DNA from: a virus
Lineage: Duplodnaviria > Caudoviricetes
Reading direction: 5' to 3' (one strand)
Virus record (IMG/VR): IMGVR_UViG_3300031813_000006
Span: 1-64,000 of that record
DNA length: 64,000 nt
The translations under genes were made by a program, and so were the position numbers. This document shows, one piece after another, positions 16,080 through 59,334 of the stretch; position 1 is the stretch's first letter, and each line of letters begins with the position of its first letter. The notes under the pieces were generated by a model that had not been told where the DNA came from, did no database searches, and was given only the letters and a program-made list of their open reading frames with translations.

Positions 16080-16320
16080 GGTAGATTATATTAGTTTTAT
16101 TCTTAAGTTGTATTAAACTGTCATTCACATCTGTTAAAGAATCAATCCTTATCTGATGACTTTTAATCTCATCACGGTATTTCTTTATAGAGTCGTTAAA
16201 TGGTTTATAATCAGGCTCTTTGATTAAATAGTGATGAAAGTTAGGGTATTCTACATGTAGAAATACACCTAAAACTAGAGCTATTAAAGCTACTATCAAG
16301 TATTTATTTAAGTTACTCAT
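16006..16320 (-). CDS. Putative inner-membrane spanin-like protein
   Basis: N-terminal TM followed by coiled coil. Confidence 0.55.
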   Translation of the reverse strand: MSNLNKYLIVALIALVLGVFLHVEYPNFHHYLIKEPDYKPFNDSIKKYRDEIKSHQIRIDSLTDVNDSLIQLKNKTNIIYREKLVFIYTANIDELDSIIRTNLK

Positions 16321-35477: not shown

Positions 35478-38400
35478 TTATGGTCTGATTTGAACAGCCA
35501 CAAAGTTTTTTACGGCTAGCGTTGGGTCAGTAGTTCCCCCTGTTACACCAACCATATGTGCCGCGTGGTTAAAGAATTTCCAACTACCTTCTTGTTCCCA
35601 AGAGTATGGACCTACATCTTTCTTATAATATGCAGATTCATTACCCAACATTCCATTTCCTATATCACCTAATAAAGTAGCATAGGTATTAAGGGTTGGT
35701 CCAAAAGCAACAGATTTAAAATCTGCTAAGTTTTTATAGGTTGTTGGAGAAAACCATTGAGAATTTTCTTGAAGTACATTCATACCTAAAAGGATAGAAT
35801 GGGCATGAGAAAAACCTATTGGGTTAAACTCCACACCTGTATCAACTACTCCTGGTAACGGTAATGGTCCAGATTCAGCTCTTAATTTAGCGTATTTTTC
35901 AGGATCATTTTCATCCCAACCTAAAACAAGATGTACAAGGGCCCATAATAATAAACATTGAAGTCCTTCTCCTAATAGTTTACCAAAGGCCTGTTTTTCC
36001 ATTGGGGTTAATTGCTGAAACCCATTCATACCTTTTCTTAACTCATTGGCTACCTTTATGAAAGTTTTGGCATTAGTCCTATAGAATCCTTCAGTCATTC
36101 TACCATGCCCTACATTATATCTTTCAGAAGCAACCCGGGACATAAACATAGAAGTTAAATACCTTCTCATATATGATATAGTTCTATAAGCAAGGTAACG
36201 TTGAGCCTCTGGTTGGTCAAACTTAGCAAAGGCACCGTTTAAATCATTACTAGCCATATGGATTTTATTCCTGAAGATCTTAAACTCTTTACCTCCAATA
36301 CCATATGTAGGATCAATACCGGGTTTTAATTGGATCTGATTATCTTGATTTACTTCCCAAGCATCAATGTATTTTATTATAGTTCCATCTAATTTAGTAA
36401 TGGTTTTATAATTCATCATTCCACCAAACAAACCCAAGGATGCATTAATTTCAGTCCATTTTCTAGGTGACATCATCCAAGAAAGATTTAATATATCTTT
36501 CTCAATATTTCTAGTAATGGTGCTTCCAAAGTGTTCTTCAAGTCTTCCTTGAAAAGCATCAAAGATGTCTATTAATTGAGTATCTAGACCTTTTACTTTA
36601 CCGCTATATAATTGTGAAGATATTTGAGTAGATGCTGATAGGGCCCATGCATGACCTGCTGTAAGGGTTGGGATACTTAGATCCTTTCCTCCGGAAGCCA
36701 TTATTATGTTTTGGACACCCGCAGATATTGAATTCTTTAAAGCAGATGGAATGTTCAGCGCAAAGAACCCAAATGAGGCTGTTTTAAATAACATGCTTGT
36801 TACTTTATTTAACACATCATTTTCTTTGGCAAAACCAGTATTAGTTTCTCCTTTGAATTCCCGGTCATATAAATTCTTCATGGCTTTTGCCCTGATATTC
36901 TCACCTTTTTTATTGGCAAACCTATTAATAACTGTATTAACTAATGAGTTTTCTTCTATCTTTTCTAAGCTATTAGATGATGCAGTATCAATCATAGCTT
37001 TTGCTATAGGTTCTATCTCCATTAATTTCTTTTGTCTTTCTGCAGAAAGCATGTAATGCATAGTGCTATGGAAGACATCTAATGAAACCTTATCTGCTTC
37101 AATATTGGAAAGACCTACAATTGGTACAGTACCTTCTTCTTCTCCAAATAAATCTGCTTTATTTAATTTAATGGATTCATGTAAATTAGTTAAAGGGTTA
37201 TAGTTCAGATTCATATTAACGTCATCAGCTGATTTACTGAAATAATCCTTAATATTTTGAATCCAACCTGTCACTGCTCCGCTAACTCCTTGTAAACCAC
37301 TACCTTGGATAATATCAACATTCTCTTTTCTAAATCTTGGAAGATCTAAATAAAGTTTAGAACTATCTTGTAAACCTTCTTGATTAGCAATATGATGTTC
37401 TTTTACTTTCTCTAGAATATTAAATACATCCGGGTTATTCTTCTTCAAAGAAAAATAATCTTGATTAATATAAGGACTATCTGCAGGTGCCCCTTCACTA
37501 ACTAATCGTGGTAACCAATGACCTTTATTATCTACTGTTTTACCTACAATTTTTTGGTTGATATATTCAGGTTTTACTTCTCTAACAAAGAATCTTTTAC
37601 CAGGTGCTCTTTGTATTGTTTCAACTACTTTACCTGTGTTATCTAAAAGATCTGTTGAAATATAATTTTTTGAATCTAATGGTTCAGTAGTATTCCAGAC
37701 AACAAGTCTTTGCCATGATTTATAGATAAACCCTGTTTCAGGATCAACATATGATCTCTTTTGTATATGGTTATTATAAAACCATTTATCAAAAGCATCA
37801 TTACCATTATTAAGTAGATTTAGTAGCTTTAACTCATCAAGTATGTTATTTGCTGTATCTTGAGTATAATTCCCTCCTAATAAAGCATTTAAATGATCTA
37901 CATAATAAGTTGTAGGTTTTTTAGATTGAAGTTTCTCTAACTTAGCATATAGAACTTTCAATTCAGATTTAATCAGTTTTTGTTCTGTATCATCTGCTTC
38001 ATTTTTCTTATCAATTAATTCAGCAAAACGTTCTTTATCTGCTTGGGACCTGTTCTTATTATTTAAAAGAGCTTCATATTCTGCATATTCTTCTTCAGTA
38101 AGACTACCTATATTAGATAATAATATCTGAAGTTTGTCAAGTGCCAATTGAGCCTGTCTTATAGAATAAATCCTTTGATGACTCATTTCATCAGCATTAG
38201 GTTGATTGTCATCATCCCTAAAACCTATAATAGATTCTCTAATAATGTCATTATTTTTAGAAATCTCATTTGAAAGATGCTCATTACCTTTATTAAGACG
38301 TTGTCTAAGAAGTTCTATATTAGCATAAATGTTATTTAACTTTTTATAATGCTCATCAGTTACCTTAACAACAGTATTATCATTAATCCATTCTTGGCGC

Positions 38401-41054
38401 GCATTATAAAAAGGACTATCTTCTTTAGTGCTTCTTTCCATACCTTGGGCCACTAAGTTCTCTTCATATTTTGTCAATGCATTTTGAAAAGATCCTGGAA
38501 TTTCTACCCACTTATAAACCTCATTAGATCTTTCTCTATATGCTTTTAAAGCCTTTGCTTTTATAAGATCATCTCCTGTCTTCATTTGACAAAACTCATC
38601 TACCAAAGCATGCATTTGAGCAAATTCTCTCCATTTATGTTTGATGATATCTAGAGTTTCTTTATCTGTAAATTCATCAACTTGCGCTTTTTGAAGAGAT
38701 ATAATCTCATCTAACTTAGCCCTTCTTTCCTCTTTAGCCTGTTGTTTAACAGCTTGAATCCTTGGATCATTGTCTTTAAATACAGAGTCTTTATCATAAA
38801 ATTGAGGAGTATAGTCCTGGTGGAAATACTTATTCTTATGTTCTTGTAGTTTTTCTAATAATCTAGCCGCTTCTGCGTAATCTTCTTTAGTATTACTTGA
38901 GTTTGCTTTATCCCTTGCCGCCGCAGCATCATATTCCATTTTAGATATAGCATATCTATGATTATGGAAAGGATTTAATAATGTAACTACCTTTCTTTCT
39001 ACTAAAGATACTTCATTAGTATCAGGATTTGTTTCATATGCAGAGGTAGTATCTATGGTAGTTAATAATTTACCTAGATCTTGAGCATTTCTTCCTTTAA
39101 AGCCTATCTTATTTAGTAAAGGGTCTAAATCATTAATGAATTGATTATGCTTTTGTTGAGCAGTAGTTAATACGTCTGTCATATGATTCTTTATGAACAG
39201 AGCAAATCCTCCTACAATTGGATCTGAATTATACATGAAACCTTCTAGAAAAGAACTTAATGCCGGGGCATCTCCTCTTTTACCTGTCAAATAATCCTTT
39301 ATAGGATCCACCTTAATTCCTTGAGCATCTGTATATGAACTCAGACGGGATTCATTGTAAAGCCTTATTTGTTTATCTATCAGACCTTTAGAAGCATTAT
39401 TTTTAGTATAATGCTCCATGATTTCCATATGAGTCTTATCTATATTATCAGCTAATGGTTGTAAAGTTTCTCTCATTAACTCTAGAGAACTCTTTTCATA
39501 GGCTAATTTGGAATAGTTTTTAGCATCTTTAAAGTTACTCTTAATACTTGATATTAAGGTTCTTAGTTCATTTTCTGGTTTTACACCGGCATCAGCCAAA
39601 TGCATATCCATCATATCTAAATATCTATCCCAATATCCAATAAACTTATTGTAACCAGTTAGTTTACGCATGTCTTCCTGAGATAAATCACCAGTTGAAA
39701 TATCTTTCATATGATATGACATTCTTTTAGAAGCCTCATGAGTAATATGAAGATCCAATACCATACTAGATACCTGCGCCTCAACGTGATTCATATCCTT
39801 ATTTAACTCTTCTATCTTGTCATCTAATAGACCATAATACCTACTTAGATTTTCTTTTATTTTTTGAAGCATATCTTGACCTAATTCATCTTTCAAGATA
39901 TCTAACATGGATGCATAATCTTTATTGGCCTTCAACTCAGCTAAATGTCTAGCTGCCACTTGATACATGTTATTATTTAACATTACCCTGGTTTTGGTAT
40001 TCAATAATTTGAAAGCTTCATTTTCTGCTTTCATTTGTTTAAAATAAGCAACAAGATCTTCTCCTGTTAATTGCTCACTTTTAATATCAAAAGTAGATCC
40101 TTGTAACATCTTGGCCAGATCCTGTAAAGAGGTGTTCACGTCAAGATTTTCTACTTTGATTTTATTACCAAATACCTTTCTTAAAACTTGCTTAACTTGA
40201 AAAAGGAAATTCTTAATTGCTTTAACAAAACCTTCTGATTGATTTACTCCACCACGTTGATTTAGAGCCATTTGCGTTAAAGCTCTTACTATAACTTCTT
40301 CCTTATATAAAGGTGTATTAAAACTTAAATCCGGATACTTAGATTGTACAGTGGATAATACTACTTGACCTTCTCCCGTAATTATAATCTTGTTGTACAG
40401 ATTGTTAAAAAGCTCAGGATTAGATAAAGAAATAGCTCTAACTAAAGGATGAGAAAATTCATGCAATAGAATTTCAGGTGTAAAGTGTTTACCTACAAAG
40501 TAAACCTTACCATCTTTAAACATTGCTGGTTCTCCATTCCATTTATTATTCTCAGGAACATTTTCTGATAAAGCTCTTGCTTGTTCAGTTGTAATAAACT
40601 GAGCATCTATCCCGGGAAAGTTATTGTTTAATTGTTCTGATAACTTACCAATAACTGTTTCAGAGTATTCACTGTTAACTTCATCAACATTAATGCTTCC
40701 ATCTGGACGGTAGAACATACTTAATTGACCATCTGGATCAATAGAAGGTCCTTTATTAGGATCAGTTTGATTATCCCTAGAACCATTTATCTGATCAATA
40801 GCTCTAAAAGCATTTTCATTAGGGACCGCTTGGGGATACATACGGTGAACATCTTTTTCAATAAACAACCTACCTTCATTTACACCATGTTTCTCACTAG
40901 CAAGATTTGTAAGATCTGTGATTATTTTCCTAAACTTAACTACATCTAAAACATTGTTAAATCTATCTATAGCATCACTTGCCATAAGCATGTTTCTAGT
41001 AGATTGTTTAGAATCACTTTTTACGCGTACATATGTTTTACAATCATTAGCCAT
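35478..41054 (-). CDS. Large virion cargo/ejection protein with zincin-like (HEFSH) domain
   Basis: About 1858 aa, helical, LLHEFSH; C-terminal hydrophobic segments; in the vRNAP block. Confidence 0.75.
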   Translation of the reverse strand: MANDCKTYVRVKSDSKQSTRNMLMASDAIDRFNNVLDVVKFRKIITDLTNLASEKHGVNEGRLFIEKDVHRMYPQAVPNENAFRAIDQINGSRDNQTDPNKGPSIDPDGQLSMFYRPDGSINVDEVNSEYSETVIGKLSEQLNNNFPGIDAQFITTEQARALSENVPENNKWNGEPAMFKDGKVYFVGKHFTPEILLHEFSHPLVRAISLSNPELFNNLYNKIIITGEGQVVLSTVQSKYPDLSFNTPLYKEEVIVRALTQMALNQRGGVNQSEGFVKAIKNFLFQVKQVLRKVFGNKIKVENLDVNTSLQDLAKMLQGSTFDIKSEQLTGEDLVAYFKQMKAENEAFKLLNTKTRVMLNNNMYQVAARHLAELKANKDYASMLDILKDELGQDMLQKIKENLSRYYGLLDDKIEELNKDMNHVEAQVSSMVLDLHITHEASKRMSYHMKDISTGDLSQEDMRKLTGYNKFIGYWDRYLDMMDMHLADAGVKPENELRTLISSIKSNFKDAKNYSKLAYEKSSLELMRETLQPLADNIDKTHMEIMEHYTKNNASKGLIDKQIRLYNESRLSSYTDAQGIKVDPIKDYLTGKRGDAPALSSFLEGFMYNSDPIVGGFALFIKNHMTDVLTTAQQKHNQFINDLDPLLNKIGFKGRNAQDLGKLLTTIDTTSAYETNPDTNEVSLVERKVVTLLNPFHNHRYAISKMEYDAAAARDKANSSNTKEDYAEAARLLEKLQEHKNKYFHQDYTPQFYDKDSVFKDNDPRIQAVKQQAKEERRAKLDEIISLQKAQVDEFTDKETLDIIKHKWREFAQMHALVDEFCQMKTGDDLIKAKALKAYRERSNEVYKWVEIPGSFQNALTKYEENLVAQGMERSTKEDSPFYNARQEWINDNTVVKVTDEHYKKLNNIYANIELLRQRLNKGNEHLSNEISKNNDIIRESIIGFRDDDNQPNADEMSHQRIYSIRQAQLALDKLQILLSNIGSLTEEEYAEYEALLNNKNRSQADKERFAELIDKKNEADDTEQKLIKSELKVLYAKLEKLQSKKPTTYYVDHLNALLGGNYTQDTANNILDELKLLNLLNNGNDAFDKWFYNNHIQKRSYVDPETGFIYKSWQRLVVWNTTEPLDSKNYISTDLLDNTGKVVETIQRAPGKRFFVREVKPEYINQKIVGKTVDNKGHWLPRLVSEGAPADSPYINQDYFSLKKNNPDVFNILEKVKEHHIANQEGLQDSSKLYLDLPRFRKENVDIIQGSGLQGVSGAVTGWIQNIKDYFSKSADDVNMNLNYNPLTNLHESIKLNKADLFGEEEGTVPIVGLSNIEADKVSLDVFHSTMHYMLSAERQKKLMEIEPIAKAMIDTASSNSLEKIEENSLVNTVINRFANKKGENIRAKAMKNLYDREFKGETNTGFAKENDVLNKVTSMLFKTASFGFFALNIPSALKNSISAGVQNIIMASGGKDLSIPTLTAGHAWALSASTQISSQLYSGKVKGLDTQLIDIFDAFQGRLEEHFGSTITRNIEKDILNLSWMMSPRKWTEINASLGLFGGMMNYKTITKLDGTIIKYIDAWEVNQDNQIQLKPGIDPTYGIGGKEFKIFRNKIHMASNDLNGAFAKFDQPEAQRYLAYRTISYMRRYLTSMFMSRVASERYNVGHGRMTEGFYRTNAKTFIKVANELRKGMNGFQQLTPMEKQAFGKLLGEGLQCLLLWALVHLVLGWDENDPEKYAKLRAESGPLPLPGVVDTGVEFNPIGFSHAHSILLGMNVLQENSQWFSPTTYKNLADFKSVAFGPTLNTYATLLGDIGNGMLGNESAYYKKDVGPYSWEQEGSWKFFNHAAHMVGVTGGTTDPTLAVKNFVAVQIRP

Positions 41055-41056
41055 AA

Positions 41057-43276
41057 TCAAAAAGGTAAATGTTCACAAATATTAGTTTCTTCTTCTTCTT
41101 TAGATTCTTCTTGGGTTCCGTATTGTACAAAACCTCCTACAAGTTTATTTACTTCTTGTTCATTTAAATTTACACCTGCAAATTTAGATATCCAGTTAGT
41201 AAGTCCTTTCATCAACTGCTTCCACCAAATAGGTTTAGGTTTATTAACTAAAGTCTCTGCCCATCTTGCAGATAGTTCCATCAATAATTTTATTTTAGAT
41301 TCTTCACCATCTTTAGTAAAACCATAATCAAGCATTAAACTTTCTAATGATTTATGACCTGTTCTTTCTAAAAGTTCAGGTAACTTTTTCATAAGTTGTT
41401 CTTCAGCAGCATATAAAACACTACCTAATTCTTTAACACCACCTAATTCTTTAGCCATTCTTAACATACCTCTATGAGCTACTTCATGAATAGCTACTTT
41501 AGAAGCTTCATTTGCAGGAGTATTAGATGCTACAACTACTACTTTGTCATTCTTAGCATCATAATAACCTTGTATTAAATTAGAATTAGTTTTAGAAAAT
41601 GGTAAGTCACCATCATCTTCTCCAACTTGTCCCTGTCTTTGGTTCCATCTTTCCTGTGCTTCTGCCAACCTTCTATTCCTTTCATCAACTTCTCTTTTAT
41701 TATTTTCTATTATTCCTTTAATATAAGGATCTTTTTCAAGAGATTCTTCTAATTCATTGCTAATTTTACCACTTTGGTTTAATGATTGATAAAAATTAAA
41801 GCCATTATCTGTAATGCTATTTATAAGCATTTCTTTTACAAGTTCTCCAAAATAAGGTGCCTGTGGATTTATTTCTTCAAGTGCGTAACCTCCTCTAACT
41901 CTAAAATAAGCTCTATCTATAGCTTCATTATTATAAAGTTCAGGTTTTAAAAAATACTTTCCTACCCTTTGTAAAACATCTATATTTGCTAAAGTTTCTT
42001 CAACAGTATTTAAATCCATTACAATACGTTCTGATCTTTCCGTTTCAGATTCTTCTGTATCAAGTACTTCGTTCCATTCCATGTCCTGTCTATATCTTTC
42101 ATAGTCATAGTCATCATAGTCATCATGGTCATCATAGTCATTATCTGTTTTACCTTGTTCTCTAAATATTAAAGCGTTTCTAATAGTTTTATTATCTAAA
42201 TCTAAATTATGTTTATTAAAGAAAGCTATAGTATCATCTAAATAGTCAATAGACGCAATTTGATTATTATTTCTTGATGTAACTTCATTTACTTGAATTT
42301 TACCTTCAGCATTTTTTTCACGTTTTGCTTCAATACCAGTTATGGTAACCCCATTTACAATTAATATATAATTATCATAATTATATACATAAGACTCTGC
42401 CGTTGCACCTGCTGTACACCATGTTGAAGGTGATAATTTTTTTAATAATTCTACATTAGTTGCATGATCTTTACTATTTACATCTTGAACTCTAGGAATA
42501 TGAACCCAATACCCTTTACCACTTGCAGAAGGTTCATGATTAACAGCATCAGAAAGTATTGCTAAAACTTCTTGGTCATATAGTTTTCCTAATCTATTAA
42601 TTTCATGAGGTTTATTCATTAACATACCATAGGTGTTTGTTAAAGCTATCTCACTTAGTTGTAGTACATATTTAGATCTTCTTTCTGGGTTTAGATATTT
42701 AATAGCATGTGTAAGCATTACCTCTTGAAAAGGTAAAGGATATTTACTCAATGCTAACACCCATTTATCAAAACTTTCTGAAGCTAATTTATTTTTTTTA
42801 AGTTCTGGATGATTACTTGATTCTTTTTTTTTATTGTAAATGGATTGAATCTTATTTAACAAATCAGATTCAGATTTAATAGTTTTTATATTACCTATTT
42901 TATCTTTATTTAATCCGGCCCAGTTAATTAAAAATTTATCATTAATCCCATTATCATTTAGAATATCTTTTAAAGATAAAAATAAATCAGTTCTACCTAG
43001 AATCTCTAAAGGGACTGCCTCAACTATTTGTACACTATTAGCAACTTCTGATGGTAATTCTGATTGTATAGCATCTCTTACTGTAGAAATAGTACCTGAA
43101 TTAGGTTTCAAATTTAGATTAGGAAACATATCTTTTTGAATCTGGTCCATTACTTCTTTTGGAGTAGCAATTTTACCATTATTTTCAAGATAATATTTAT
43201 AAGCCATGAGTTTACCAACCCTGTTTTCTAAGGTCTTCCATTCAGGTGAATTTCTATTAGGACAGGTTAAGTTCAT
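41057..43276 (-). CDS. Polyvalent cargo-like protein (WCT-motif domain + HEVAH zincin-like domain)
   Basis: 739 aa; STWCTAG; AIHEVAH; DYD repeat; CPNRNSPEWKTL N-terminus. Confidence 0.7.
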   Translation of the reverse strand: MNLTCPNRNSPEWKTLENRVGKLMAYKYYLENNGKIATPKEVMDQIQKDMFPNLNLKPNSGTISTVRDAIQSELPSEVANSVQIVEAVPLEILGRTDLFLSLKDILNDNGINDKFLINWAGLNKDKIGNIKTIKSESDLLNKIQSIYNKKKESSNHPELKKNKLASESFDKWVLALSKYPLPFQEVMLTHAIKYLNPERRSKYVLQLSEIALTNTYGMLMNKPHEINRLGKLYDQEVLAILSDAVNHEPSASGKGYWVHIPRVQDVNSKDHATNVELLKKLSPSTWCTAGATAESYVYNYDNYILIVNGVTITGIEAKREKNAEGKIQVNEVTSRNNNQIASIDYLDDTIAFFNKHNLDLDNKTIRNALIFREQGKTDNDYDDHDDYDDYDYERYRQDMEWNEVLDTEESETERSERIVMDLNTVEETLANIDVLQRVGKYFLKPELYNNEAIDRAYFRVRGGYALEEINPQAPYFGELVKEMLINSITDNGFNFYQSLNQSGKISNELEESLEKDPYIKGIIENNKREVDERNRRLAEAQERWNQRQGQVGEDDGDLPFSKTNSNLIQGYYDAKNDKVVVVASNTPANEASKVAIHEVAHRGMLRMAKELGGVKELGSVLYAAEEQLMKKLPELLERTGHKSLESLMLDYGFTKDGEESKIKLLMELSARWAETLVNKPKPIWWKQLMKGLTNWISKFAGVNLNEQEVNKLVGGFVQYGTQEESKEEEETNICEHLPF

Positions 43277-49200: not shown

Positions 49201-52200
49201 TAAAAGAAGAGCATGCATATTAGAATATGCGGCCTCAGGGGTAGCAATAAACCTATCATAATCAATATAGTATCTACCAGATGTACTACCTATTGAAAAA
49301 ATATGACTAAGTTTTTGAGTTACTGCGGTACTTTTATCAGCATGTTTAGAGTTTTCAATAGTCCCTCTCAATACACCACTATGGAATTCAGCAAGAAATT
49401 TAGAGAACTGATCCGCATCAGAAGATGTTACACCTTCTTTAGATCCTTCACCATCTTCCAATAACTGCATACCGGCAAGGTTTTCTAATAAAACCTTTAC
49501 TTTTGCTCTACCTTCATCAGTGTTTACTTCTCTCTTTTTACCACCGTTATCAAAATCAAAAATAGAATTTAACCAGATACTGTCTTTAATGAAAGGATTT
49601 TTGATAAACTTATAGTTCAACATATGAGGTAAAGAAACCAACTCTTGATAGGTATTTACAGAATTAATATCATTTACTAAATGGGTAAGTGTACTATTAA
49701 GAGTGTGTTCAAACTGTTGTTTACCTGCAGCATTGGTAGCCGCAAATGAAGCACCTTGTTCACCGTATCTACTTTGAATTTGTTGAAGTTCATTCCAAGT
49801 TTTAATTTCATTCTTTTCATCTTTTCCATCTGCTGATTTATAAGTCTTTTCAAAGATGTCTTCTAATGACTTTACAGTGTACTTACCATCTAGAATCTTC
49901 TGTAACTTGGCTTTAATAAAATTAGATCCAAATGCTTCAACCTCTTCTCTTAATTTCTTATTATTATCCATATACATCCCTAATGCATTATAAAACTCAT
50001 ATGAGTTGTTTATATGCGTAGGGAAGTCATTAAGAAGAGTTTTTATATCTAGTGTATTTACATTTGAAGAGTTTTTCTTTATGTATTTACTCTCAGGTAA
50101 TTTAGCAAAGTTGTTACTCCAGTTTCTTCCAATCATTTTGGATTCTCTAGAAGAGAAGCCCGGTTCTGCGTGAATTCTAGCAGTTGGTGTTCCAGTATCT
50201 AACATGTTAATGTTTAACTGAACTAACGGCATTCTAGATTTATTAAAGTCTTCAAAGAATTTATTCCACATAGTGAAGGCCGGTTCAGTAATACTATTAG
50301 CAGGACCAAGCTTACTAAGTAATTGAGTTACAATAGGAAACTCACCATTTTCATTTTCCTTTAATAACTTCTGTTCCATTTCTTCAGGAGAACGGGAACC
50401 TTCTAATATCTTAGTTAACTTATTCCAAATGGTAACAAAGTCAACTAATTTAGAAACACCTATTCTATTAGAAATAGTATGACCTTCTAAATTTATAGCA
50501 TGAAGACTTCTTATTAAATAAAGAGTTTCATCTGATGCCATTGAGGTTAATGATTGTTCATTACCTGCTTTACTACCAAGACTATCTGGAGTTTCTGCCT
50601 GATCAGCTTCTAAATCTGCAAAATACTTATCACTGAATGCCATGTACTTAGACATCTTCATATGATAATTCATTACACCTTTTCCATCAATTGTTCCACC
50701 TGGTTTGTTTACATCACCAAAGTTTTCAATAGCCCATTTTAAAGTATCTAACTTTCTTTGAATAGAAAGCTTTTCTAAAACATTAGTTTCTTTATGGTAT
50801 TGCTTAGTGTACTTAACGTTATAATAATTAAGCATTGCCTGAACAAACTTATAAGCTTCTGTTCTCTTTTTAGGATCAGATATTACTGAGGTAGTATTTT
50901 TAGTCCTACCAATAGACATATTCTTAAGTAGTCTCAGTTCTTCTCTTTCCTCTGCATTTAAAGGTTTAACTGTTTCACCATCAATGATAGTAGGTTTAAC
51001 AATTCTTTCTTGTTGTTGTAATTTAAGAAGTCTTAAGTAATCTTTATAACCACCTTGTACACCAGAATTCTTCCAGTCAATGTAATGAGAAAATAAAGAA
51101 TCCACGGTATCTACTAGTAAAGAAGAATCTTCATACTTAAGTGAAGGAGTAGGGTTAGCATCATCTAATGCTTCTACACCTTTATTAAGAACATCAAAAT
51201 TAGAATTAGCTTCACTGAAAGTGTATTTTTTTAAATCTCCTATACGTAAGTTTTCATATAAATCTCTTACGTTATTTATAGATTTAGCATCTGCTAAAGC
51301 ATCTTTTATAGATACACCTGTAAAAACTTGTTTTAAAAAGTTAGATATCTTTCTAAATAAAGAATTTCTTACAGGAGCACTCTTCTTTACATTAGATGAA
51401 AGCATGTAATTTCTAAAGTCTTCTGCTAAGTACTCTTCAAGTTCCATTGTAGTAGCTTCAGAAAACTTAACTACCCTTCCTCTGTAACTTCTAAAAGTTC
51501 CTGTTTGTTTTGAAACTTCTTTATATAGCTTAGTTTTCTCTTCACGTGTCAAAAACATCTGAGTAAATCCATGCCATGCTTCATGATAGATATCTGAATA
51601 ATCTGAACCCTTGTAAAGATTGATAGCATTTCCTACCCAGTTAGCAACACCATTTGGTTCATGAGTATTAACAGCATTGAATAATATATTCAATGTAAAA
51701 TGATGACGCAATGGAGAAGATTCATACCATTTCTTAGCATTTTCAAGTTGTTCAGGAGTAGCTTTAGCATCTAAATTTTTTGTACTTGCAAGTTTATTAA
51801 ACCCTGCAGCTGATAAAGCATCTAATAAATCTTGATCCGGCCCATCTATTGCTTTAGGAACTTCAGGTGTCTCAGGATCCAATTCTGTATCAACGTTTAA
51901 TTCTGGAACACCTGATTCCATATCAGTCAATACAGGTGAGAATTCAAAATGAGCATTAAGTGGGATTAACTCACCATTAGCATTAGGTTCATAATTAATG
52001 AAAGTGTTATCTGCTAAGAAACCTACAAGATTACCATCAGCATTTGATTTACTATACGGCATTGGTTTTTCTACCATTACATCTTTACCGTTTACTTTTG
52101 TAAAGCTAATGTCTTTAAACTCTGAAGAATGTAAATATGAAACAGCATCTATCTTTACAGCAGGACTCACCCACTTACTTACAGTTCCATCATTATTATA

Positions 52201-53721
52201 TTTCATAGCTCCGTTATATAAGCTATCTATTGAAACATCAGGACCAAATATTTTCTTACCTTTTTGCTCATATGATTTTACTTCAAGGGCATATTTATTA
52301 GTTAAGAATTTAACAATGTCTTCATAAGGTGGAATAAGATCCGGTTCTTCTTTAGTCCCGTTAAACTTATTGTTGATCCTTAAACTTATCTTATCATTTT
52401 TATAAGTAAAGTGAAAGGTTCCTGGTGAATTTTGATAAACACTATTAAGATATTCAAACTTTTCTAAATCAGATACAGGTACTAACTCACCATCAACTTC
52501 TTTATAAAGATCTTTTGTAGTAAGTAATGTAGCAATTTTATGAGCCAATTCTTGGCTAACTTCTTTTGGTCTTAAATGTATTGAACTATCTACACCTTTG
52601 ATTTTGAAAGAAGCCTGACTTTTAAATCCTTTACCCGCTCCTTTTTCAATAACTAAACTAAAAGGATCTTCAGGTTTAAACTTAATCTTACTAAGATTAG
52701 TCATAGTAGATTCAGATGATTTAAGATAACCTAGTGTACCACCTGTAATTACATTCCTAACTTGTTTTGTAGGGTTTTCTAAAATAAAGTTCTTGATTTT
52801 ATCTATAGATTCTATTTGCTTTCTACGTAATTCAGTAGCTTCAGCTGTTCCAATAGATTCACCTCTCTTATGAGATTCTCTGATAATTGCTTCAACAGAA
52901 CCAAAATGAGAAGGGTTATCACTGTTTCTAAAAAAGTAATGCATTAACTTACCTTGATTTGGAGATACAATTTCTCCTTTATCATTAAAGTATAGGAAGT
53001 TACCTCCCTTATCTGTCAAAACCATTTGAACCTTTTCACGCATGATTGGATGGCGTTGATTCTCTGGTATAGAATCTAAATGTACCGCAGTAAGATATAC
53101 ACCACCTTTTTGAACTCCTGGAATCTCTACAAAAGTGGAATCTTGATGTACAGGTAATGATTTCATCATATTGACAATCATCTTCTTTACATCATAATAT
53201 ATTTTTACTAAAGGATTAGGAATATTAGTTTCCATGTCCACGGCTTCCTGACCTATATCAGTAAAAGGATATACTGGTACCGCTACATCAATATCTCTAT
53301 TTAAATGAGGATAGTTTATAGCATCAGCCATTGCAAGAGTACCATCATTAATGGCATCTTTTAAATCTTCTTGCTCTTCTATTAAATTGTCTTTAGATTC
53401 TCCACTAAGTTGGTTTAATACATTAGTAGCTTTTTCAAAAGTATTACGCAACTTAACAATTGATTCATAATGAGGTGCTACATAATCTTGAAGATCTTTT
53501 ATTTTAGCTTGAACATCCAAAATTGCTTGTGGAATAGAACTAACATAAGATGATATTACTACCGGATCATTAAGTTTTGGGTTTTGAGAAAAATCATTCT
53601 TCAATGTAGATATGATAGTATCAATATTAAAAGGAACCTTTTTTTCAAGGTTCTCTTCTAACAATGCTTTAATATATTTTACAAGATTAATGTATTCTTT
53701 ACTACCGTTAGCACATGTCAT
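43273..53721 (-). CDS. Virion-packaged DNA-dependent RNA polymerase (crAss-like), fused to a zincin-like domain
   Basis: 3482 aa; RIPVQG..GSDFDVDK catalytic loop (46903-46917) as in phi14:2 gp66-type RNAPs; YHEAWH at about 51571-51585. Confidence 0.9.
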   Translation of the reverse strand: MTCANGSKEYINLVKYIKALLEENLEKKVPFNIDTIISTLKNDFSQNPKLNDPVVISSYVSSIPQAILDVQAKIKDLQDYVAPHYESIVKLRNTFEKATNVLNQLSGESKDNLIEEQEDLKDAINDGTLAMADAINYPHLNRDIDVAVPVYPFTDIGQEAVDMETNIPNPLVKIYYDVKKMIVNMMKSLPVHQDSTFVEIPGVQKGGVYLTAVHLDSIPENQRHPIMREKVQMVLTDKGGNFLYFNDKGEIVSPNQGKLMHYFFRNSDNPSHFGSVEAIIRESHKRGESIGTAEATELRRKQIESIDKIKNFILENPTKQVRNVITGGTLGYLKSSESTMTNLSKIKFKPEDPFSLVIEKGAGKGFKSQASFKIKGVDSSIHLRPKEVSQELAHKIATLLTTKDLYKEVDGELVPVSDLEKFEYLNSVYQNSPGTFHFTYKNDKISLRINNKFNGTKEEPDLIPPYEDIVKFLTNKYALEVKSYEQKGKKIFGPDVSIDSLYNGAMKYNNDGTVSKWVSPAVKIDAVSYLHSSEFKDISFTKVNGKDVMVEKPMPYSKSNADGNLVGFLADNTFINYEPNANGELIPLNAHFEFSPVLTDMESGVPELNVDTELDPETPEVPKAIDGPDQDLLDALSAAGFNKLASTKNLDAKATPEQLENAKKWYESSPLRHHFTLNILFNAVNTHEPNGVANWVGNAINLYKGSDYSDIYHEAWHGFTQMFLTREEKTKLYKEVSKQTGTFRSYRGRVVKFSEATTMELEEYLAEDFRNYMLSSNVKKSAPVRNSLFRKISNFLKQVFTGVSIKDALADAKSINNVRDLYENLRIGDLKKYTFSEANSNFDVLNKGVEALDDANPTPSLKYEDSSLLVDTVDSLFSHYIDWKNSGVQGGYKDYLRLLKLQQQERIVKPTIIDGETVKPLNAEEREELRLLKNMSIGRTKNTTSVISDPKKRTEAYKFVQAMLNYYNVKYTKQYHKETNVLEKLSIQRKLDTLKWAIENFGDVNKPGGTIDGKGVMNYHMKMSKYMAFSDKYFADLEADQAETPDSLGSKAGNEQSLTSMASDETLYLIRSLHAINLEGHTISNRIGVSKLVDFVTIWNKLTKILEGSRSPEEMEQKLLKENENGEFPIVTQLLSKLGPANSITEPAFTMWNKFFEDFNKSRMPLVQLNINMLDTGTPTARIHAEPGFSSRESKMIGRNWSNNFAKLPESKYIKKNSSNVNTLDIKTLLNDFPTHINNSYEFYNALGMYMDNNKKLREEVEAFGSNFIKAKLQKILDGKYTVKSLEDIFEKTYKSADGKDEKNEIKTWNELQQIQSRYGEQGASFAATNAAGKQQFEHTLNSTLTHLVNDINSVNTYQELVSLPHMLNYKFIKNPFIKDSIWLNSIFDFDNGGKKREVNTDEGRAKVKVLLENLAGMQLLEDGEGSKEGVTSSDADQFSKFLAEFHSGVLRGTIENSKHADKSTAVTQKLSHIFSIGSTSGRYYIDYDRFIATPEAAYSNMHALLLKYVNSELVRINRMKVAEKTKNDDYNVTDYMKRGQEFVIFDKVLSKDTKDKLYALDIPLTNYLATKTSESIALKTAITSELTKYFDNQTKLNLDIMSKSEFYADNLITELRRNAREELKDKFSKLDKEDILKRIMKGYTVNSWIHHMESIIMVYGDPAQYVIEKEEFNKRNAGVMATGLYHRIDETALKYANETLGRPFASKQNEKNKGVAGFVPNLIKQFSHLLTSAVINDVESKSANYKEYAEGIYQDELKKLQADPTYNNSSEKDKETFRKTAKSRVDDIMKKNYYAMEEANAQAHMSFDTYRTLLKLRSEWSEKQEQLFQDIINDKPVSALEVSEFFPVQKYQYWGPLDNGDQALGVNAMHKMAVMPLIPNLIKGTVLEQMHNKMMREGVDYTVFKSGSKMATLTDKGRTDNFYEQGTHSTTRQADFSTTSNPFVHNNVFLKYFKNQVYTAPKYKGTTIFSTQLRKLIEEGLMENGIPTDFKPKKFKDHNTRLQEWNKLSDKEKANQSDNWKLIQSYESNLSRLTEFKKQQLLEEAGGENADPKELIAFLKKELDRQDLGEHEKDFIEYNEEARELVNDLSLSMNADKLERLLTAIVNKKIIRQKVTGENLIQVSGVGFESMQHMQDKLKNATDVEKEKYSPTNDLLSYRLSADGRTVLAAQVKVSMQGNFKILLNHPDVYVLSKEKGIERLDALNELIKNEQWLDKEDNRKMITMVGVRIPVQGLNAMEFMQIHHFLPESSGNIIIPPAEIVAKSGSDFDVDKMTTLMPNLYRIENKVKIYKAGEKIASKSEVLNTIRDIRIKLNASREWHDEVSKSIKKAGVKDLEPDQRALFDKLKKDYKEESTKLNTEIAYLQNEFAAITRGEYDNDIVGRFKDNKRSYEYAKKIEDGFIEAINKQAKLDSDFKQNRKEYLKVFKSELFDLENEAYDKEMEPIQADLEDAVARLNGNDGKAYENALIDDMTNILSLKSNFGSLVRPNAVDLVRPFSEKMKSLNEPGMTKEKPSGTSIFEIGYNLAKHTANNVGKQILGILAVANTYHTLFKRIGMYMNPTFTQAGRKTSVTRHQRLLLNHNFLTLANGQKAISLSHTYDAKFQNKISDIINQLINGSVDVAKGAWIFDLHAEKEVLPTLNYMIEAGIPFEEAVLFVSQPLIREYVMEMKQGKSTFSTPLGKDPGNPNWFRVAARQYLLDKTNVLSKETLTDTKENFNKLMYDKIEENLQKYYDEPSNNAFTPETLQKNIEKYSALEDKSRYVASQDEIANFLHFLEIEDMSKVITEIKTKTNFDTKKSASIFDSISRDHLLAQLMTNDRVNRDLIESIITESPIASFKIGEYMKKLWQPFFKLRNSDIMNNYKLKLLGTKGFSKIVDDTFGDTEKFMSEFSNDFVSYIFQNEIRGVNLNAVTDYKGVKVENVALLKTGSFIKDGVLYIDKNALHQEFVANSAKTLEEVKFLYDKTRKLALCEPGTFSTEREFNAFALERAYLTSTLTPEKVATDPNFLKAINDVLKDSGAKKQANETQEEFDAKVKRIAFQFYIRDKALDNSFNAYKMFNGENSFADRFMEIKKLYPEFIKDYYIFQVMAQNMVKGSNHLYLTDSLLDATKINTLHENISELSNLTPDMMPDPGARELITDLFKMLPYYAFMQSGMNAKGRYALTRLIPTDGLMNMLKPVVNKYNKYLNESVLDSYYSEFVANNNYKTRMNSKFKDYMVPSSFESIVRSESLKNKGTIEDINESTSTTFVVKPTKDPLINTYHFDTINYSQVGIPLILEDPNNANRIFVYNTVAEGMPLSQVVNTDGDVRSAKTSNRIGIATKKAFPEGTKIEAVRDNEGKLVKNAKGTNVIKANYTGSEVMKNTLTDETYEQNIKAIDASIELLKKFKERGKIITFNSNGYGQGLIGRNPVTGEKIANSTEVGRQTFLYLSKQLLDNFNFRNKNYETLAEGTEELQKRQPVSDKDVLDFMIKFCGVL

Positions 53722-53736
53722 AGTGATATGTTTTAA

Positions 53737-56700
53737 TTACTTACAATTATCTTCTGGATCTACATCATTAAATATATCCATTTTGTTCTTTGGTTTCTCT
53801 GAATTAAGGATAGCATCTGTTACTGCAGGATCTTCTTGACTAGTCTTTTGAGCATTGGCATTACTTTGGTCAACAAGGTCTTGTTCCTCTTTTAACATCT
53901 CTAAATATTCAGGAGCTTCATAAGCTGAAAGGTACGCAATATCTTTTAAAGTTACAGTCTTTATTGAAACTTTATCTCTAGAATTATTGGGGTCTTTCAC
54001 TGATTGAACTATAATTTTATCACCTGTTACAGATACTACAAAAAACTTTTTATCACCTGTTGTTTTTAGATTTAAAGTAACAATTTTACCAGTAGTTAAA
54101 TTCTCTAAAGTAGGTGTAGATTTTAATCTATTTTGAGTTTCAGTAGCTAATTTAACAAGCATGTCATATTCTATTGAACCATTAAGTAAACCTGAAGTAT
54201 CAGAAGTTCTTAAATTTTCAAGTTCTTTCTCCATCAATTCTATATACTCTACAATATCATTTACCGCGTCAAACTTTTCTTGAAGAGATTTAGAAGGTAT
54301 TAACTTATTCATAATCAAGTTCTTAGTCTCAGATTCTTTAGCCAATACCTCATCTACATAATTATCAAAGAAAGTAATATCATCTATCTTATTTGCATCA
54401 TCAATAGCATCAAGTTCTTGATTTTTGAATTCTCTGTATTTACTAGGATCATCAAATTTTTCATTCATCAATAAGTTTTGATTTTTAGAAACCAATACTT
54501 TATCAACGTTATTCATGTATTTAGTAGAACCTATTAAAACAATATGACCTTGTTGTTTTAGTTCATTAAACTTAGCCATGATTTTATTTAATTCTTCTGG
54601 CGTAGGTCTTTGTTCTAATAATTCAGCATCTGTTTTATATTGATTATCAGGATGTTGTCTTAAAACTTCAATGATAATTTTATCACCATCTGTAACATTC
54701 TTCTGATCTAAAGCAAAGGTTGACTTACCGGTCCCTCCACTAGCATAGACTAATTTACCATGATAGTCTTCATGAACTTCTGCATGTACTTTATTTTCAG
54801 CAAATTGCAAAAATAACTTAGTAGTATCTTCTGTCCATTTTCCATTTGTTACTTTTAAAGCTTTTAAAGCTCTTACCACTTTACTATGAGCTATCATCAT
54901 AGTAGTAGATGATGCTAAATCAGCATCTCTAAAAGCATCTTCCATTCTTGCTGAATACTCATCAAAACTCTCTCCTCCAGGGACTTTTTGATCATGGTTT
55001 TTAATCCAATAAGCTTCATCAAAAGAACCATCAGTTTTTCCATCAAATTCACCAATATTCCAAGTAGCAAGATTAGGGTTTACTTGAGTTTCAACACCTG
55101 CATAATCAGCAGCTATCTTTGCAGTTTGAGTTGCACGTTGTACAGGAGAATGTTCTATTAAAGTTTTACCTGTACTTTGAGCATATACCCCTATTTTCTT
55201 AGCTTCATCTACACCCTCAGAAGTAAGATCAGTTGGTTTCTGACCATTCTCTAAACCTTGCGCGGTAGCTGTATCTATAGCATGAGGTACAACTGCAGTA
55301 TCTTTTACAAAGATGGCATCTACTTTATGGGCCCCTAAATCTTTCTCTTGTGTAATAAGTTTATTACCTTGTCCCAAACCATCTAAGTTAGCATCTGGAG
55401 CAACATATCCTTTAATAGTTGCTTCTGCCATAGAAGATTTCATAAAGACATTTACAAAACTTAGTAATTTAGAAATCTGTTCAGAATTTAAACCTGTTAA
55501 ATCTATTCTTAAATCTTCTGCTACAGAAGAATTCCAATTCCTAAAATCATTAATTAATGTGGTTTGTAATCCTTGTGGTAAAGAATCAAACGTAGCAGTA
55601 GTAATAACTAATGCATTTTTAGGTTTTACACCTGGAGGTAATGCAGAGTTTAATAAAGTAATAGCCTCATCTAATACTTTTGGATCTGCTGTACCTAATG
55701 TTCTACCAATCAAATCTCTAACAGCTTCTGCAAAAGGTTCCCAAAGGTTTTCTTTCTTAAGACCTTCCTGAATTTCATGACTATTTAAAATATTTTCAAG
55801 AAGTTCATCAGGATCTGTTTTAAAAATATCTGCAATTTTTGAAATCTCTTCTTTAAACTCAACATCTTCATAAAAAGATTCCTGAACAATTCTACTTAAA
55901 ATCTCATGCAGAATAACTACTTCAAGTGGTTGATTACCACCTTTATAATCTGAGGAACTATATCTAGCATCAATTACAGTTTGAAAAGTTCTCTCTGGAA
56001 ATGCTATTCCAGAACTTGGTTTTAATTCTACAGTTTCCCCTGCTTTACCACTCTCTTTAAAAAGAATTGAACTATTTGGACTTGTCAGAGTTAACAAACG
56101 TTGTGCTAATTGTTTTTCAGCAGGAGTAGAATGAATGCTAGTTATAATTTTCTTTAATACCTCTTGTGTAGGTAAGCTCTTATTATTTGTAAATTCAAAT
56201 TGTTTTTGAATTTGTTCATAAGTTCTTAAATCAGTACTTGTTTTTTTTCTAGTGGTTACTATTTGTGAATCAGGTAACTGAACAGGAGTAGGAGTAGAGA
56301 ATGGTTTAGGTTTTACACTAGGTAAACTGTTTCTTCTGATATCTAACAAGTCTAAGATCTTCTTCATTTTATTTGAAGTAGCTTCTACAGGTTTAAAAGT
56401 AGTACTGTCTAAAAAGTTAATAGGTTCTGTCTGTTCATTAATAAGCGCATCTGTATCTTCAGGACTAAGATATACACCTATGTTTCTTAACCCATTAATA
56501 AAGTCATTATTTACAGGTCTTTCTAAGAATTGCTTAAGAGCTTCTTTTTGTTTATCTTCTATAGTTTTTTGAGCTTCCTCTATACCGTTTTTTAGATTAT
56601 CAAAATGATGTTCTACAAAACCAGGGTCAGTAAGAATGTTAATTGCTTTAGCTGCAACACCATTATCTTTTTTCAAAGCATAATAGTCCTTTAATCCTAC

Positions 56701-59334
56701 AAATGATTTTGCAACGGTATCATTAAGAACTGTTTCTCCATGATGTTTACCAAGTAATTCTACATAAGCTTTATAATGCTTAAATAAGTCATTGGTGGAT
56801 TCTGTAAGGATTGGATCTTCATGACGTACTCCCGCGGTATTTTCTTTTGGAGCAGTTATTGAATGTAATATAGAACTGTAAGCTTTAATGGCCCCATTCA
56901 TATTTTTAATAGCTTCTAATTTCTCTTCTGCTTTTTTAAGATTCTGTTTACTTTCTGAGTCAGTTCCTAATTTAAAAGTTTTGATTTCTTCTGTCAAAGT
57001 CTTCATCTCTCTTTTAAGATCATCTTCATGAAACAAAAGTTTAAAGTCATTGAAGTTTGCTTTAGAAATAGGTTTGTTATTTGCTAAATTATCTGCTACA
57101 CTCTTCATTCTTGATAAAGTATTATCAAAATCATGTGATGCAAATGTTCCTAATTTTTTAGCAAAATCTAACGCGTGATATTCAGGAGTTCCAAATTTAA
57201 AATGGTTTTGAAAATTTTCATCAAAATAGTCATACCTCTTTTTTAAATCATCTATCTTATCCTCATACTTATCTAAGTTCTTTCTTAGTTGCTTTTGTTC
57301 TTCAGGAGTTGCATTAGGCATTTCCATAGCATCTGCTAAAGATTTATCATCCATTTGCTTCAAAGCTTTTAAATGATCTCTTAAGATATCTTCTCTACCT
57401 GATTGTAAAGTAGTATAGATATTATGAAACATGGCATCTTGTTGGTTGTCCCTTGAAGATTTAGGATCATTATCTATTTTATACTTATCATCATATATCT
57501 TAGCTTCTCTTTGAGCCATGAAGTTTCTATCAATTGCCCTGGCCACTAAGAAAGGTCTTTTAGAAATCTCATTCCTAGAATTTACTAAATCATCTGCAAA
57601 AATCTCTTGTTGCTTTTTATAAAGAGTTGTTTCAAAAGCTCTACGTGCAGCAAGATCTTTATAAGTATTTTTAGTAAAGAAAGCTTTAGTAGCATCTTGC
57701 AATACCCCTGTTTTGGCAGGAAGCGTATTGAAGATCAAATGTTGAGGACCTTGAATTGCGGTACCCATAAAGAATCCAGAAGCAAACGTTTCTAGACCTT
57801 GAGAACTTAATTGAGAATCTACACCTTTAGATATTGATGCCATCCATCCTTTATGACCTTGCACTGAAGGATCTATTTCAGGTTGTTCATAATAATCTTT
57901 AGCCGCAGTTGACATAGCATCCTGACCAATTTCTTGAAGACCTTCTGCAAAGTTAGCAGCCAAGTATTTCATACCGTGTTTGGCAATATTTACAGGACGT
58001 AAAGCATCCTTAATACCTTTCATAGAATACTTACCAACTTTCTCAGCAATATCTTCTCCTAGTTTAGCACCGGGTTTATCTATTACTCTCCATGATATTT
58101 CTGTAATTGCTTGTTTAGCACTCTTTTCTAAAGGTGTAAAACCTTTTAAAGCTGTTTCAAGTGCAAACTTATTAGTAGCATATATAAGACCTACATTACC
58201 TAAGATATCTGCTCTAGCAGCATTAACAGCTCTAGATTCTATATCTTTCATTTCTTCATCAGATTCCGGGGCCCTACCATGCTCTTCATAGAAATGATTT
58301 AATAAATCTTGTCTAGTATCATTATATGTGGTACCACCTTCTAATCTAGATTCAGAGGTTACCGCACGGATTTCTCTAGCATCTCTCCACAATGCTCCTG
58401 CACTCATCTTAGCTTTTGCAAAAGTAGTAAGAGCCTTTTCACCTTGTTCTGTCATTTTAACACCGCCCATGATATCTTTAATAGCAGCGCTACTATGTTC
58501 AAAAGGTAACATATGTTGTGCAAACTTTGAAACTCTTGATTGTCCAAATAGATCTTTAGCTTTAGAAAAGTTTTCTATTTCTGCAATAGCTTTACCACCT
58601 TCTTCAATATCTTTAGCAGATTGATTGAATCTAGATGCCATTCTTGGAAACAATTTATCAGATAACCGTCCTTCACTCAATACATCTAATGAAGCCATAC
58701 CTAATTCTTCAGCACCCATCTCAGCAATGATACCTATTGTATAACCTGTATTAAGAGCAAAATTAGTTAATTGACCTGTTACACCTCCTTTAGAAGAGGA
58801 ACCTATTTCCATTCTCCTATTCATATCTGCAGCATTTACTTTATCTGCACTTAATGAAAAAGGATCTGCTATTTCTTGAACCATGTCTTTAGCACCTAAA
58901 CTAACTAAACCTGCCCATTGAGACATTCCTCTACTGAATTCTTGCCAAGGTGTTGACTGTTCATTATACGCGGCTTCATTATCTCTAAATGGATCAAAGC
59001 CTAATTTCTTAAATAAAGGATGAGCATAAAATCTATCAAAGTCACCAGTCTTTGGTCCAGCTGAAAAAGCAAATGCACCTGATTTAGCAGATTCACTAAC
59101 ATTATGGTTTCCCATAGATAATTGAAAATTACTAATTATATCATCTGCTTCTGTATTTTTAAAGATTGGTAATGCACCAGAAGGTTGAGCAGCTTCTGTT
59201 TGAGCTTTAAACCTGTCTTGTTGATATTGTTGTAACTTATCACCTAACGGTGTTACAGGTGTTACAGGTGTAACAGGTACATTTTGTGCATCTTGTAATG
59301 GAACTGACTGAGAATCATTTGTATCTTCTGCCAT
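53737..59334 (-). CDS. Large virion cargo/ejection protein with histidine-phosphatase-like and P-loop kinase-like inserts
   Basis: 1865 aa; Gly/Ala-rich helical N-half (EGLQE motif); PHA..LT.EG..SP.QRATQTA..GGES..AH; GGTGKST. Confidence 0.75.
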   Translation of the reverse strand: MAEDTNDSQSVPLQDAQNVPVTPVTPVTPLGDKLQQYQQDRFKAQTEAAQPSGALPIFKNTEADDIISNFQLSMGNHNVSESAKSGAFAFSAGPKTGDFDRFYAHPLFKKLGFDPFRDNEAAYNEQSTPWQEFSRGMSQWAGLVSLGAKDMVQEIADPFSLSADKVNAADMNRRMEIGSSSKGGVTGQLTNFALNTGYTIGIIAEMGAEELGMASLDVLSEGRLSDKLFPRMASRFNQSAKDIEEGGKAIAEIENFSKAKDLFGQSRVSKFAQHMLPFEHSSAAIKDIMGGVKMTEQGEKALTTFAKAKMSAGALWRDAREIRAVTSESRLEGGTTYNDTRQDLLNHFYEEHGRAPESDEEMKDIESRAVNAARADILGNVGLIYATNKFALETALKGFTPLEKSAKQAITEISWRVIDKPGAKLGEDIAEKVGKYSMKGIKDALRPVNIAKHGMKYLAANFAEGLQEIGQDAMSTAAKDYYEQPEIDPSVQGHKGWMASISKGVDSQLSSQGLETFASGFFMGTAIQGPQHLIFNTLPAKTGVLQDATKAFFTKNTYKDLAARRAFETTLYKKQQEIFADDLVNSRNEISKRPFLVARAIDRNFMAQREAKIYDDKYKIDNDPKSSRDNQQDAMFHNIYTTLQSGREDILRDHLKALKQMDDKSLADAMEMPNATPEEQKQLRKNLDKYEDKIDDLKKRYDYFDENFQNHFKFGTPEYHALDFAKKLGTFASHDFDNTLSRMKSVADNLANNKPISKANFNDFKLLFHEDDLKREMKTLTEEIKTFKLGTDSESKQNLKKAEEKLEAIKNMNGAIKAYSSILHSITAPKENTAGVRHEDPILTESTNDLFKHYKAYVELLGKHHGETVLNDTVAKSFVGLKDYYALKKDNGVAAKAINILTDPGFVEHHFDNLKNGIEEAQKTIEDKQKEALKQFLERPVNNDFINGLRNIGVYLSPEDTDALINEQTEPINFLDSTTFKPVEATSNKMKKILDLLDIRRNSLPSVKPKPFSTPTPVQLPDSQIVTTRKKTSTDLRTYEQIQKQFEFTNNKSLPTQEVLKKIITSIHSTPAEKQLAQRLLTLTSPNSSILFKESGKAGETVELKPSSGIAFPERTFQTVIDARYSSSDYKGGNQPLEVVILHEILSRIVQESFYEDVEFKEEISKIADIFKTDPDELLENILNSHEIQEGLKKENLWEPFAEAVRDLIGRTLGTADPKVLDEAITLLNSALPPGVKPKNALVITTATFDSLPQGLQTTLINDFRNWNSSVAEDLRIDLTGLNSEQISKLLSFVNVFMKSSMAEATIKGYVAPDANLDGLGQGNKLITQEKDLGAHKVDAIFVKDTAVVPHAIDTATAQGLENGQKPTDLTSEGVDEAKKIGVYAQSTGKTLIEHSPVQRATQTAKIAADYAGVETQVNPNLATWNIGEFDGKTDGSFDEAYWIKNHDQKVPGGESFDEYSARMEDAFRDADLASSTTMMIAHSKVVRALKALKVTNGKWTEDTTKLFLQFAENKVHAEVHEDYHGKLVYASGGTGKSTFALDQKNVTDGDKIIIEVLRQHPDNQYKTDAELLEQRPTPEELNKIMAKFNELKQQGHIVLIGSTKYMNNVDKVLVSKNQNLLMNEKFDDPSKYREFKNQELDAIDDANKIDDITFFDNYVDEVLAKESETKNLIMNKLIPSKSLQEKFDAVNDIVEYIELMEKELENLRTSDTSGLLNGSIEYDMLVKLATETQNRLKSTPTLENLTTGKIVTLNLKTTGDKKFFVVSVTGDKIIVQSVKDPNNSRDKVSIKTVTLKDIAYLSAYEAPEYLEMLKEEQDLVDQSNANAQKTSQEDPAVTDAILNSEKPKNKMDIFNDVDPEDNCK

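Follow-up and report, generated by a model that had tools for sequence, protein, structure and literature searches.

Cysteines at facing protein ends in the cargo of Crassvirales suggest a reversible split polyprotein

The Crassvirales include the most abundant human gut viruses. The findings reported here bear on how podovirus-like phages pass protein in megadalton amounts through a narrow tail. They start from 64,000 nucleotides (nt) of viral DNA (Duplodnaviria; Caudoviricetes), positions 1 to 64,000 of IMG/VR record IMGVR_UViG_3300031813_000006 (the window), which belong to a genome of 123.6 kb. Four consecutive proteins encoded on its − strand, here termed A, B, C and D, have hardly any cysteine except at the termini by which each faces its neighbour. 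This terminal-cysteine rule holds at the level of the proteins, is deeply conserved in the Crassvirales cargo block around the RNA polymerase, and is coupled to gene fusion and fission. On balance we favour the reading that the facing cysteines bond end to end, most likely as disulfides, and that A–D are packaged and ejected as one thread. For Crassvirales in general we regard it as an even call that three to five giant cargo proteins are linked through terminal cysteines into a reversible split polyprotein of 5,000–8,000 residues, threaded whole and reduced in the host, to which links can be added by a cysteine at each end.

Results

The open reading frames (ORFs) of the window were listed in six frames and translated, and the codons of the six terminal cysteines, or handles, were checked on the DNA (Table 1). 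By translation, A–D contain 10 cysteines in 7944 residues, six of which lie within 5 residues of the six mutually facing termini, and the two outer ends (the N-terminus of A and the C-terminus of D) have none. An earlier note on this DNA had made the same count, which the translation and codon check confirm. Were the 10 cysteines placed at random, at least 6 would fall into the 42 inner-terminal positions with a probability of 4.5e-12. Elsewhere in the window, ORFs have 1.37% cysteine (140 of 10,188 residues), a rate at which about 109 would be expected in A–D, whereas the internal cysteines of A–D number 4 in 7944 (0.05%).

The cargo blocks of two cultured phages, phi14:2 (gp67–gp66–gp65; gp66 is PDB 6VR4) and crAss001 (gp47–gp50–gp49), resemble the window in having a polymerase with a DFDxD motif and giant flanking proteins, and they follow the same rule. 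In phi14:2, gp67 (1797 amino acids, aa) has a single cysteine, which is its final residue, gp66 (2180 aa) has cysteines at 3 and 2179 only, and the single cysteine of gp65 (1421 aa) is residue 3. In crAss001, the single cysteine of gp47 is residue 2339 of 2341, that of gp49 is residue 5, and gp50 has three (5, 1334 and 2404 of 2412). The window differs from both phages in its larger proteins, 7,944 aa in all, and in its fourth link, the 739-aa protein C. The crAss001 gp47 gene is on the strand opposite gp50 and gp49 and the matching cysteine is nonetheless present, hence the rule tracks proteins and not gene junctions. The earlier note had proposed pairing by gene order: matching by protein order stands in these distant homologs, but neither gene adjacency nor a shared strand is needed.

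In a third cultured phage, crAss002, the single cysteine of gp32 is residue 2019 of 2020. In gp33, the start as annotated (MVLDYS...) hides a Met33-Ser-Cys (16125–16230 of locus L004), and in several near-identical IMG/VR contigs a stop upstream forces the MSC start of the gp33 homolog. These sequences suggest that the annotated gp33 start is probably 32 codons too early. An intrinsic-terminator-like hairpin lies between gp32 and gp33.

For metagenomic relatives, two IMG/VR scans with the polymerase core produced 160 loci with 23–98% core identity to the respective query, and junctions were counted in 95 representatives after clustering at 70% core identity. Cysteines are present on both sides of 132 junctions, on neither side of 15 and on one side of 6. 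The 15 cysteine-less junctions are the border between the chain and a preceding unrelated protein. Among the discordant ones, three have the C-terminal cysteine only, all explained by a later ATG, and three the N-terminal cysteine only. Outer ends seldom carry a cysteine (2 of 27 N-termini and 3 of 56 C-termini). In a control set of 97 ORFs from related loci, with 1.42% cysteine overall, 10% have a cysteine in the first 8 residues and 12% in the last 10. Fisher's test gives p = 2.8e-15, a value that overstates independence because the loci are related. The tabulation over polymerase-block proteins that the earlier note had suggested thus finds enrichment at facing termini, and the conservation of terminal cysteines in homologs, on which that note's idea depended, extends over phi14:2, crAss001, crAss002 and about 160 IMG/VR loci.

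Outside the termini, cysteine is nearly absent from the window's relatives (L005–L084), with 20 internal cysteines in 495,486 residues (0.004%), and 60 of their 66 complete polymerases have only the two terminal ones; in the gut set, internal cysteines amount to 0.11% overall. The N-terminal cysteine is always residue 3–6, and 0–8 residues follow the C-terminal one. Both TGT and TGC are used, and gene spacing ranges from −8 to more than 30 nt. Two alignments of 52 sequences were made, one of the 260 C-terminal residues of A and one of the 260 N-terminal residues of B, with a mean identity of 11–15%; in both, the cysteine was the sole invariant or nearly invariant column.

Closed chains, for which the whole chain is in the fetched DNA, are available in 22 representatives, each with one head-only and one tail-only protein. 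They consist of one protein without any cysteine (n = 1), two proteins (13), three proteins (7) or four (the window). A single orphan was seen, an N-terminal cysteine without visible partner in L141. At five loci (L055, L083, L136, L146 and L149), small ORFs without terminal cysteines lie between chain genes whose handles still match; these ORFs may be inserted selfish genes.

The handles come and go with the arrangement of the genes, and a fusion of adjacent genes lacks both cysteines of the junction. Polymerase ORFs that include the part homologous to D never end in a cysteine, nearly all of those that stop short of it end in one, and fusions of A and B (recognized by a catalytic motif more than ~2850 aa from the start) have no cysteine at the N-terminus. 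In one fused ORF (L071), pairwise BLAST places the border between A-end homology and B-start homology at around residue 1790–1850, and the only cysteine is near the C-terminus. Hidden Markov models (HMMs) from the A-end and B-start alignments gave no match in fused ORFs, the termini having diverged too far. The C module is fused to D in one locus (L001) and to the polymerase N-terminus in another (L002), with the cysteine missing at each fused end. A search with C against 1.8 billion representative proteins extends this pattern. All 10 stand-alone cassettes found carry exactly an N-terminal, an internal (Cys287 of C) and a C-terminal cysteine, in agreement with the earlier proposal of a 739-aa cassette gene equipped with both handles. 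Fusions of C and D have the N-terminal handle only, and polyproteins of 4799–6296 aa (5690–6296 aa in the C search) have no terminal cysteine. Extra links of 169–1684 aa have exactly one cysteine per end, and in six loci, small ORFs of 169–396 aa situated between chain genes have exactly two, one at each end. On a tree of the 95 polymerase cores, on which the fusion contrasts were drawn, there are ~8 state changes for head fusion and ~3 for the tail.

The identity of the four proteins was assessed by sequence comparison. A tblastn search with B reached phi14:2 g066 at 7e-13, plus annotated crAss RNA polymerase genes, and blastp of B against phi14:2 gp66 gave 5.8e-18. The catalytic motif GSDFDVD starts at B residue 2267, and its D-x-D-x-D is invariant in a five-sequence alignment. 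By these matches and the DFDxD motif, B is identified as a Crassvirales-type virion RNA polymerase (vRNAP) of the phi14:2 gp66 type, and the name given to it in the earlier note is correct. A phmmer search with B against PDB sequences gave no match and did not reach 6VR4, although 6VR4 is in the sequence set, and PHROGs had no family for B, C or D. Homologs of A were found by jackhmmer upstream of the vRNAP in 39 loci. For D, the homologous protein follows the vRNAP in 98 loci, and in 37 it forms the C-terminal part of a fused vRNAP. A contains a histidine phosphatase domain (His_Phos_1, residues 1356–1491, Pfam E 8.7e-19), an enzyme domain within a probably ejected protein. D has an HExxH motif (HEFSH, residue 198), and for the gp65 orthologs a zincin-like protease domain has been reported (bioRxiv 10.1101/2020.03.07.982082).

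Protein C has a HEVAH motif at residue 597, inside a C-terminal domain (~550–730); the motif is conserved, and the domain recurs within many giant phage proteins. Its internal Cys287 (motif LSPxTWCT) is kept in every homolog seen. In an AlphaFold2 model of C, the tails (1–5 and 714–739) are disordered. A Foldseek search with the model against the PDB gave no match at E ≤0.001, only weak GNAT-like rows at E ~1 over ~110 residues of the middle, beta-rich part, and tblastn of C against INPHARED phages gave no match. C may be enzymatic.

Taken by sequence, A–D are the RNA-polymerase cargo block of a crAss-like phage: a polymerase with giant neighbours in the same orientation, of which the one downstream is of the gp65/gp49 type. 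By homology with phi14:2 and crAss001, A–D are most likely packaged in the virion and ejected into the host. In these two phages, three orthologous proteins were detected in the virions by mass spectrometry, and the polymerase is delivered into the host together with the DNA, early transcription being rifampicin-resistant (bioRxiv 10.1101/2020.03.07.982082; PMC10172136).

Table 1 Coordinates of the cargo-block proteins and of other features, as positions in the window (or in the genome where they pass its end)
Feature	Position	Strand	Length (aa)	Cysteines and details
Protein A, chain head	53737–59334	−	1865	Only Cys 1864 (...EDNCK-stop, codon 53743–53745)
His_Phos_1 domain of A	54862–55269	−		
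Protein B, crAss-type virion RNA polymerase	43273–53721	−	3482	Handles Cys3 (MTC..., codon 53713–53715) and Cys3479 (...KFCGVL-stop, codon 43285–43287); sole internal Cys 2975
Catalytic motif GSDFDVD of B	46903–46923	−		
Protein C, inserted link (cassette)	41057–43276	−	739	Handles Cys5 (MNLTC..., codon 43262–43264) and Cys734 (...NICEHLPF-stop, codon 41075–41077); internal Cys 287 (codon 42416–42418)
HEVAH motif of C	41474–41488	−		
Protein D, chain tail	35478–41054 (from its ATG)	−	1858	Handle Cys5 (MANDC..., codon 41040–41042); internal Cys 822 and 1700; none at C-terminus
HEFSH motif of D	40449–40463	−		
Upstream protein	59334–62225	−	963	Cys 128, 134 and 766; no terminal Cys
Further upstream protein	62300–65956 (past window end)		1218	No Cys
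Further upstream protein	beyond window		1513	No Cys
Cys-rich tail-region proteins	87048–91590 (beyond window)			
tmRNA	12085–12462	+		
Replication module	1–35414	+		

Discussion

From these sequence patterns we infer a bond between facing cysteines, its chemistry, the time at which it forms and its role in ejection. Each protein would bear one cysteine, on a short flexible tail, at every end that has a neighbour in functional order, and the C-terminal cysteine of one protein would bond the N-terminal cysteine of the next. The bond would most likely be a disulfide that forms in the assembled or released virion, and the four proteins would then act as one linear thread of ~7,900 residues, equivalent to the single polyprotein found in some relatives. 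The thread would be packaged in fixed stoichiometry and drawn partly unfolded through the portal and the tail channel, after which the reducing host cytoplasm would part the links.

The strict co-occurrence of cysteines on both sides of a junction, the cysteine-free outer ends and the loss of both handles on fusion together argue that the junction cysteines act on each other and take the place of a peptide bond. The simplest chemistry would be a disulfide: each side offers one thiol, no further ligand is conserved, the handles lie in tails modelled as disordered, and the purge of all other thiols is expected if stray oxidation is harmful. The cargo must traverse the channel partly unfolded (PMC10172136), and with overhangs of at most 8 residues beyond the handles the joint would be thin enough for it. 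In crAss001 virions, inter-subunit disulfides occur in the tail (hub and ring proteins) and in the gp57 dimer, so disulfides do form and persist in crassvirus particles (PMC10172136), although these known bonds brace the fixed tail and the portal-vertex protein gp57, whereas the proposed ones would link mobile cargo.

Several points weigh against the disulfide-linked thread. Virions are assembled in a reducing cytoplasm, and no thioredoxin-fold or Erv1-type oxidase was found in the 123.6-kb genome, hence oxidation would need to be spontaneous and late. Specifically, thioredoxin (PF00085) is absent from the whole genome, and an Erv1/Alr search of the genome gave no match, but gave none in any control genome either. 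In the window, a Pfam search of 56 other ORFs for a thiol oxidoreductase returned only replication and repair families. Single thiols on flexible tails also mean that cognate pairing needs docking. In the gut, crAss002-like and related phages (L087–L129) tolerate 5–23 internal cysteines in a giant polymerase fusion, and such internal cysteines would compete for pairing. The crAss001 cryo-EM paper (PMC10172136) and the phi14:2 preprint (bioRxiv 10.1101/2020.03.07.982082) mention neither the terminal cysteines nor a bond of this kind. Finally, independent fusion or fission events are few: of 6 supported head contrasts, the N-terminal cysteine behaves as predicted in 4–5 and in the opposite way in 0 (sign test ~0.06). 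The case is therefore carried mainly by extreme conservation amid near-total cysteine loss and not by repeated evolution, with the cassettes adding separate events.

If the terminal cysteines were not mutual partners, each could instead anchor its protein to a copy of the same type or to a capsid or portal protein, or be the site of a modification. None of our tests shows contact between cognate termini, structural disulfides are many in crAss001 (PMC10172136), and the orphan N-terminal cysteine in L141 would suit such anchoring. However, the two sides of a junction co-occur (147 concordant versus 6 discordant), the outer ends of chains almost never carry a cysteine, and all 22 closed chains have one head-only and one tail-only protein. 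Separate anchoring predicts none of these patterns, and we consider it unlikely.

Slightly less likely again is a metal clasp, in which facing cysteines would share a metal ion and hold a non-covalent chain that opens on metal loss. It has the same pairing logic as the disulfide chain, and reducing conditions in the cytoplasm at assembly would permit a metal bridge but not easily a disulfide. Yet there is one cysteine per terminus, with no conserved His, Cys, Asp or Glu nearby and no CxxC, and with two ligands only, the site would hold poorly against the pull of ejection. A zinc hook has a CxxC or multi-ligand motif on each partner, whereas the ends seen here offer a single cysteine and no further conserved column.

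The cysteines could also serve ligation, through a thioester or an intein-like or enzyme-made link, to give a true polyprotein. Fused and split forms do interchange in evolution, and the N-terminal cysteine mostly stands beside a small second residue (Ala or Ser). This is nevertheless a very improbable account of the rule: Pfam detects no intein or Hint domain in A–D, and so no Hint-fold halves at the junction cysteines as in a split intein; only 0–8 residues follow the C-terminal cysteine and 2–5 precede the N-terminal one; the N-terminal cysteine is never residue 1 or 2, as chemistry of the native-chemical-ligation type requires; and no candidate ligase is evident. Chance, composition or a nucleotide signal for translational coupling, which tight gene packing and the 4-nt ATGA overlap of the B and C genes might bring to mind, is hardly credible and was rejected, given the P value of the window alone, the conservation at 20–49% identity across ~160 loci, the variable position, codon and spacing, and the persistence of the rule where unrelated genes are inserted and in crAss001 gp47, encoded on the opposite strand.

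Among known systems, the disulfide-linked thread would in its working resemble AB-type translocated toxins, in which a cargo chain tethered by one disulfide passes unfolded through a membrane and is released when the cytosol reduces the bond. The likeness is in the proposed working only, with no sequence relationship, and the two toxin chains come from one cut precursor, whereas the crAss chain would join three to five separately encoded proteins head to tail in the particle. Closer in function are the N4-like phages (Schitoviridae: N4 gp50, DEV gp71–73), which likewise eject a giant virion RNA polymerase and partners through the tail and strongly suppress cysteine, with 0.00075% in ejection proteins versus 0.865% in the proteome (PMC11445570). 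A–D share with them a cysteine content far below that of the proteome (0.05% internal versus 1.37%) but not the total absence of cysteine, as six terminal cysteines are kept and conserved in relatives. The N4-type polymerase is one polypeptide of ~3,500 aa with zero cysteines, while crAss-like phages have two to five proteins with one cysteine per facing end; by this analogy, the crAss chain looks like the N4-like solution cut up and re-joined.

For fused polyproteins, the phi14:2 preprint proposed cleavage alone, and the word cysteine is absent from its text (bioRxiv 10.1101/2020.03.07.982082). In the searchable literature on crAss or Crassvirales together with cysteine or disulfide (for the phi14:2 study, the preprint text), we found no description of the terminal-cysteine rule or of the end-to-end tether that it suggests. 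According to papers of 2023 (PMC10172136) and 2026 (on N4), crassvirus cargo ejection and the ejection proteins are still to be resolved. If true, the tether would explain the packaging of three to five giant proteins in fixed proportion, their exit in order, and the free interchange of fused and split gene arrangements in Crassvirales. The rule is also of use in annotation. It corrects start codons, as for crAss002 gp33, shows which giant ORFs are part of the ejected chain, and locates members of the chain that are encoded elsewhere in the genome.

Other features of the window

The 963-aa protein upstream of A is outside the cysteine-linked chain but within the same cysteine-depleted block as the two proteins further upstream, of 1218 aa and 1513 aa, which are cysteine-free and together occupy 62300–70516 of the genome. 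In the whole 123.6-kb genome, tail-region proteins further downstream contain 4–5% cysteine (for example, 45 cysteines in 891 aa). Judged from composition, cysteine-rich tail proteins and cysteine-free upstream proteins would be consistent with a disulfide-braced tail and a thiol-free cargo in the particle.

The replication module on the + strand includes, by Pfam, two GIY-YIG and one LAGLIDADG homing-endonuclease-like ORFs, a ClpS-like adaptor, a MoxR/VWA pair, a DnaB-type helicase, and ATP-dependent DNA ligase and RNA ligase domains. A phage-encoded tmRNA, detected by ARAGORN, specifies the tag peptide AAGKCAISALVAGVAIQEEELAVA.

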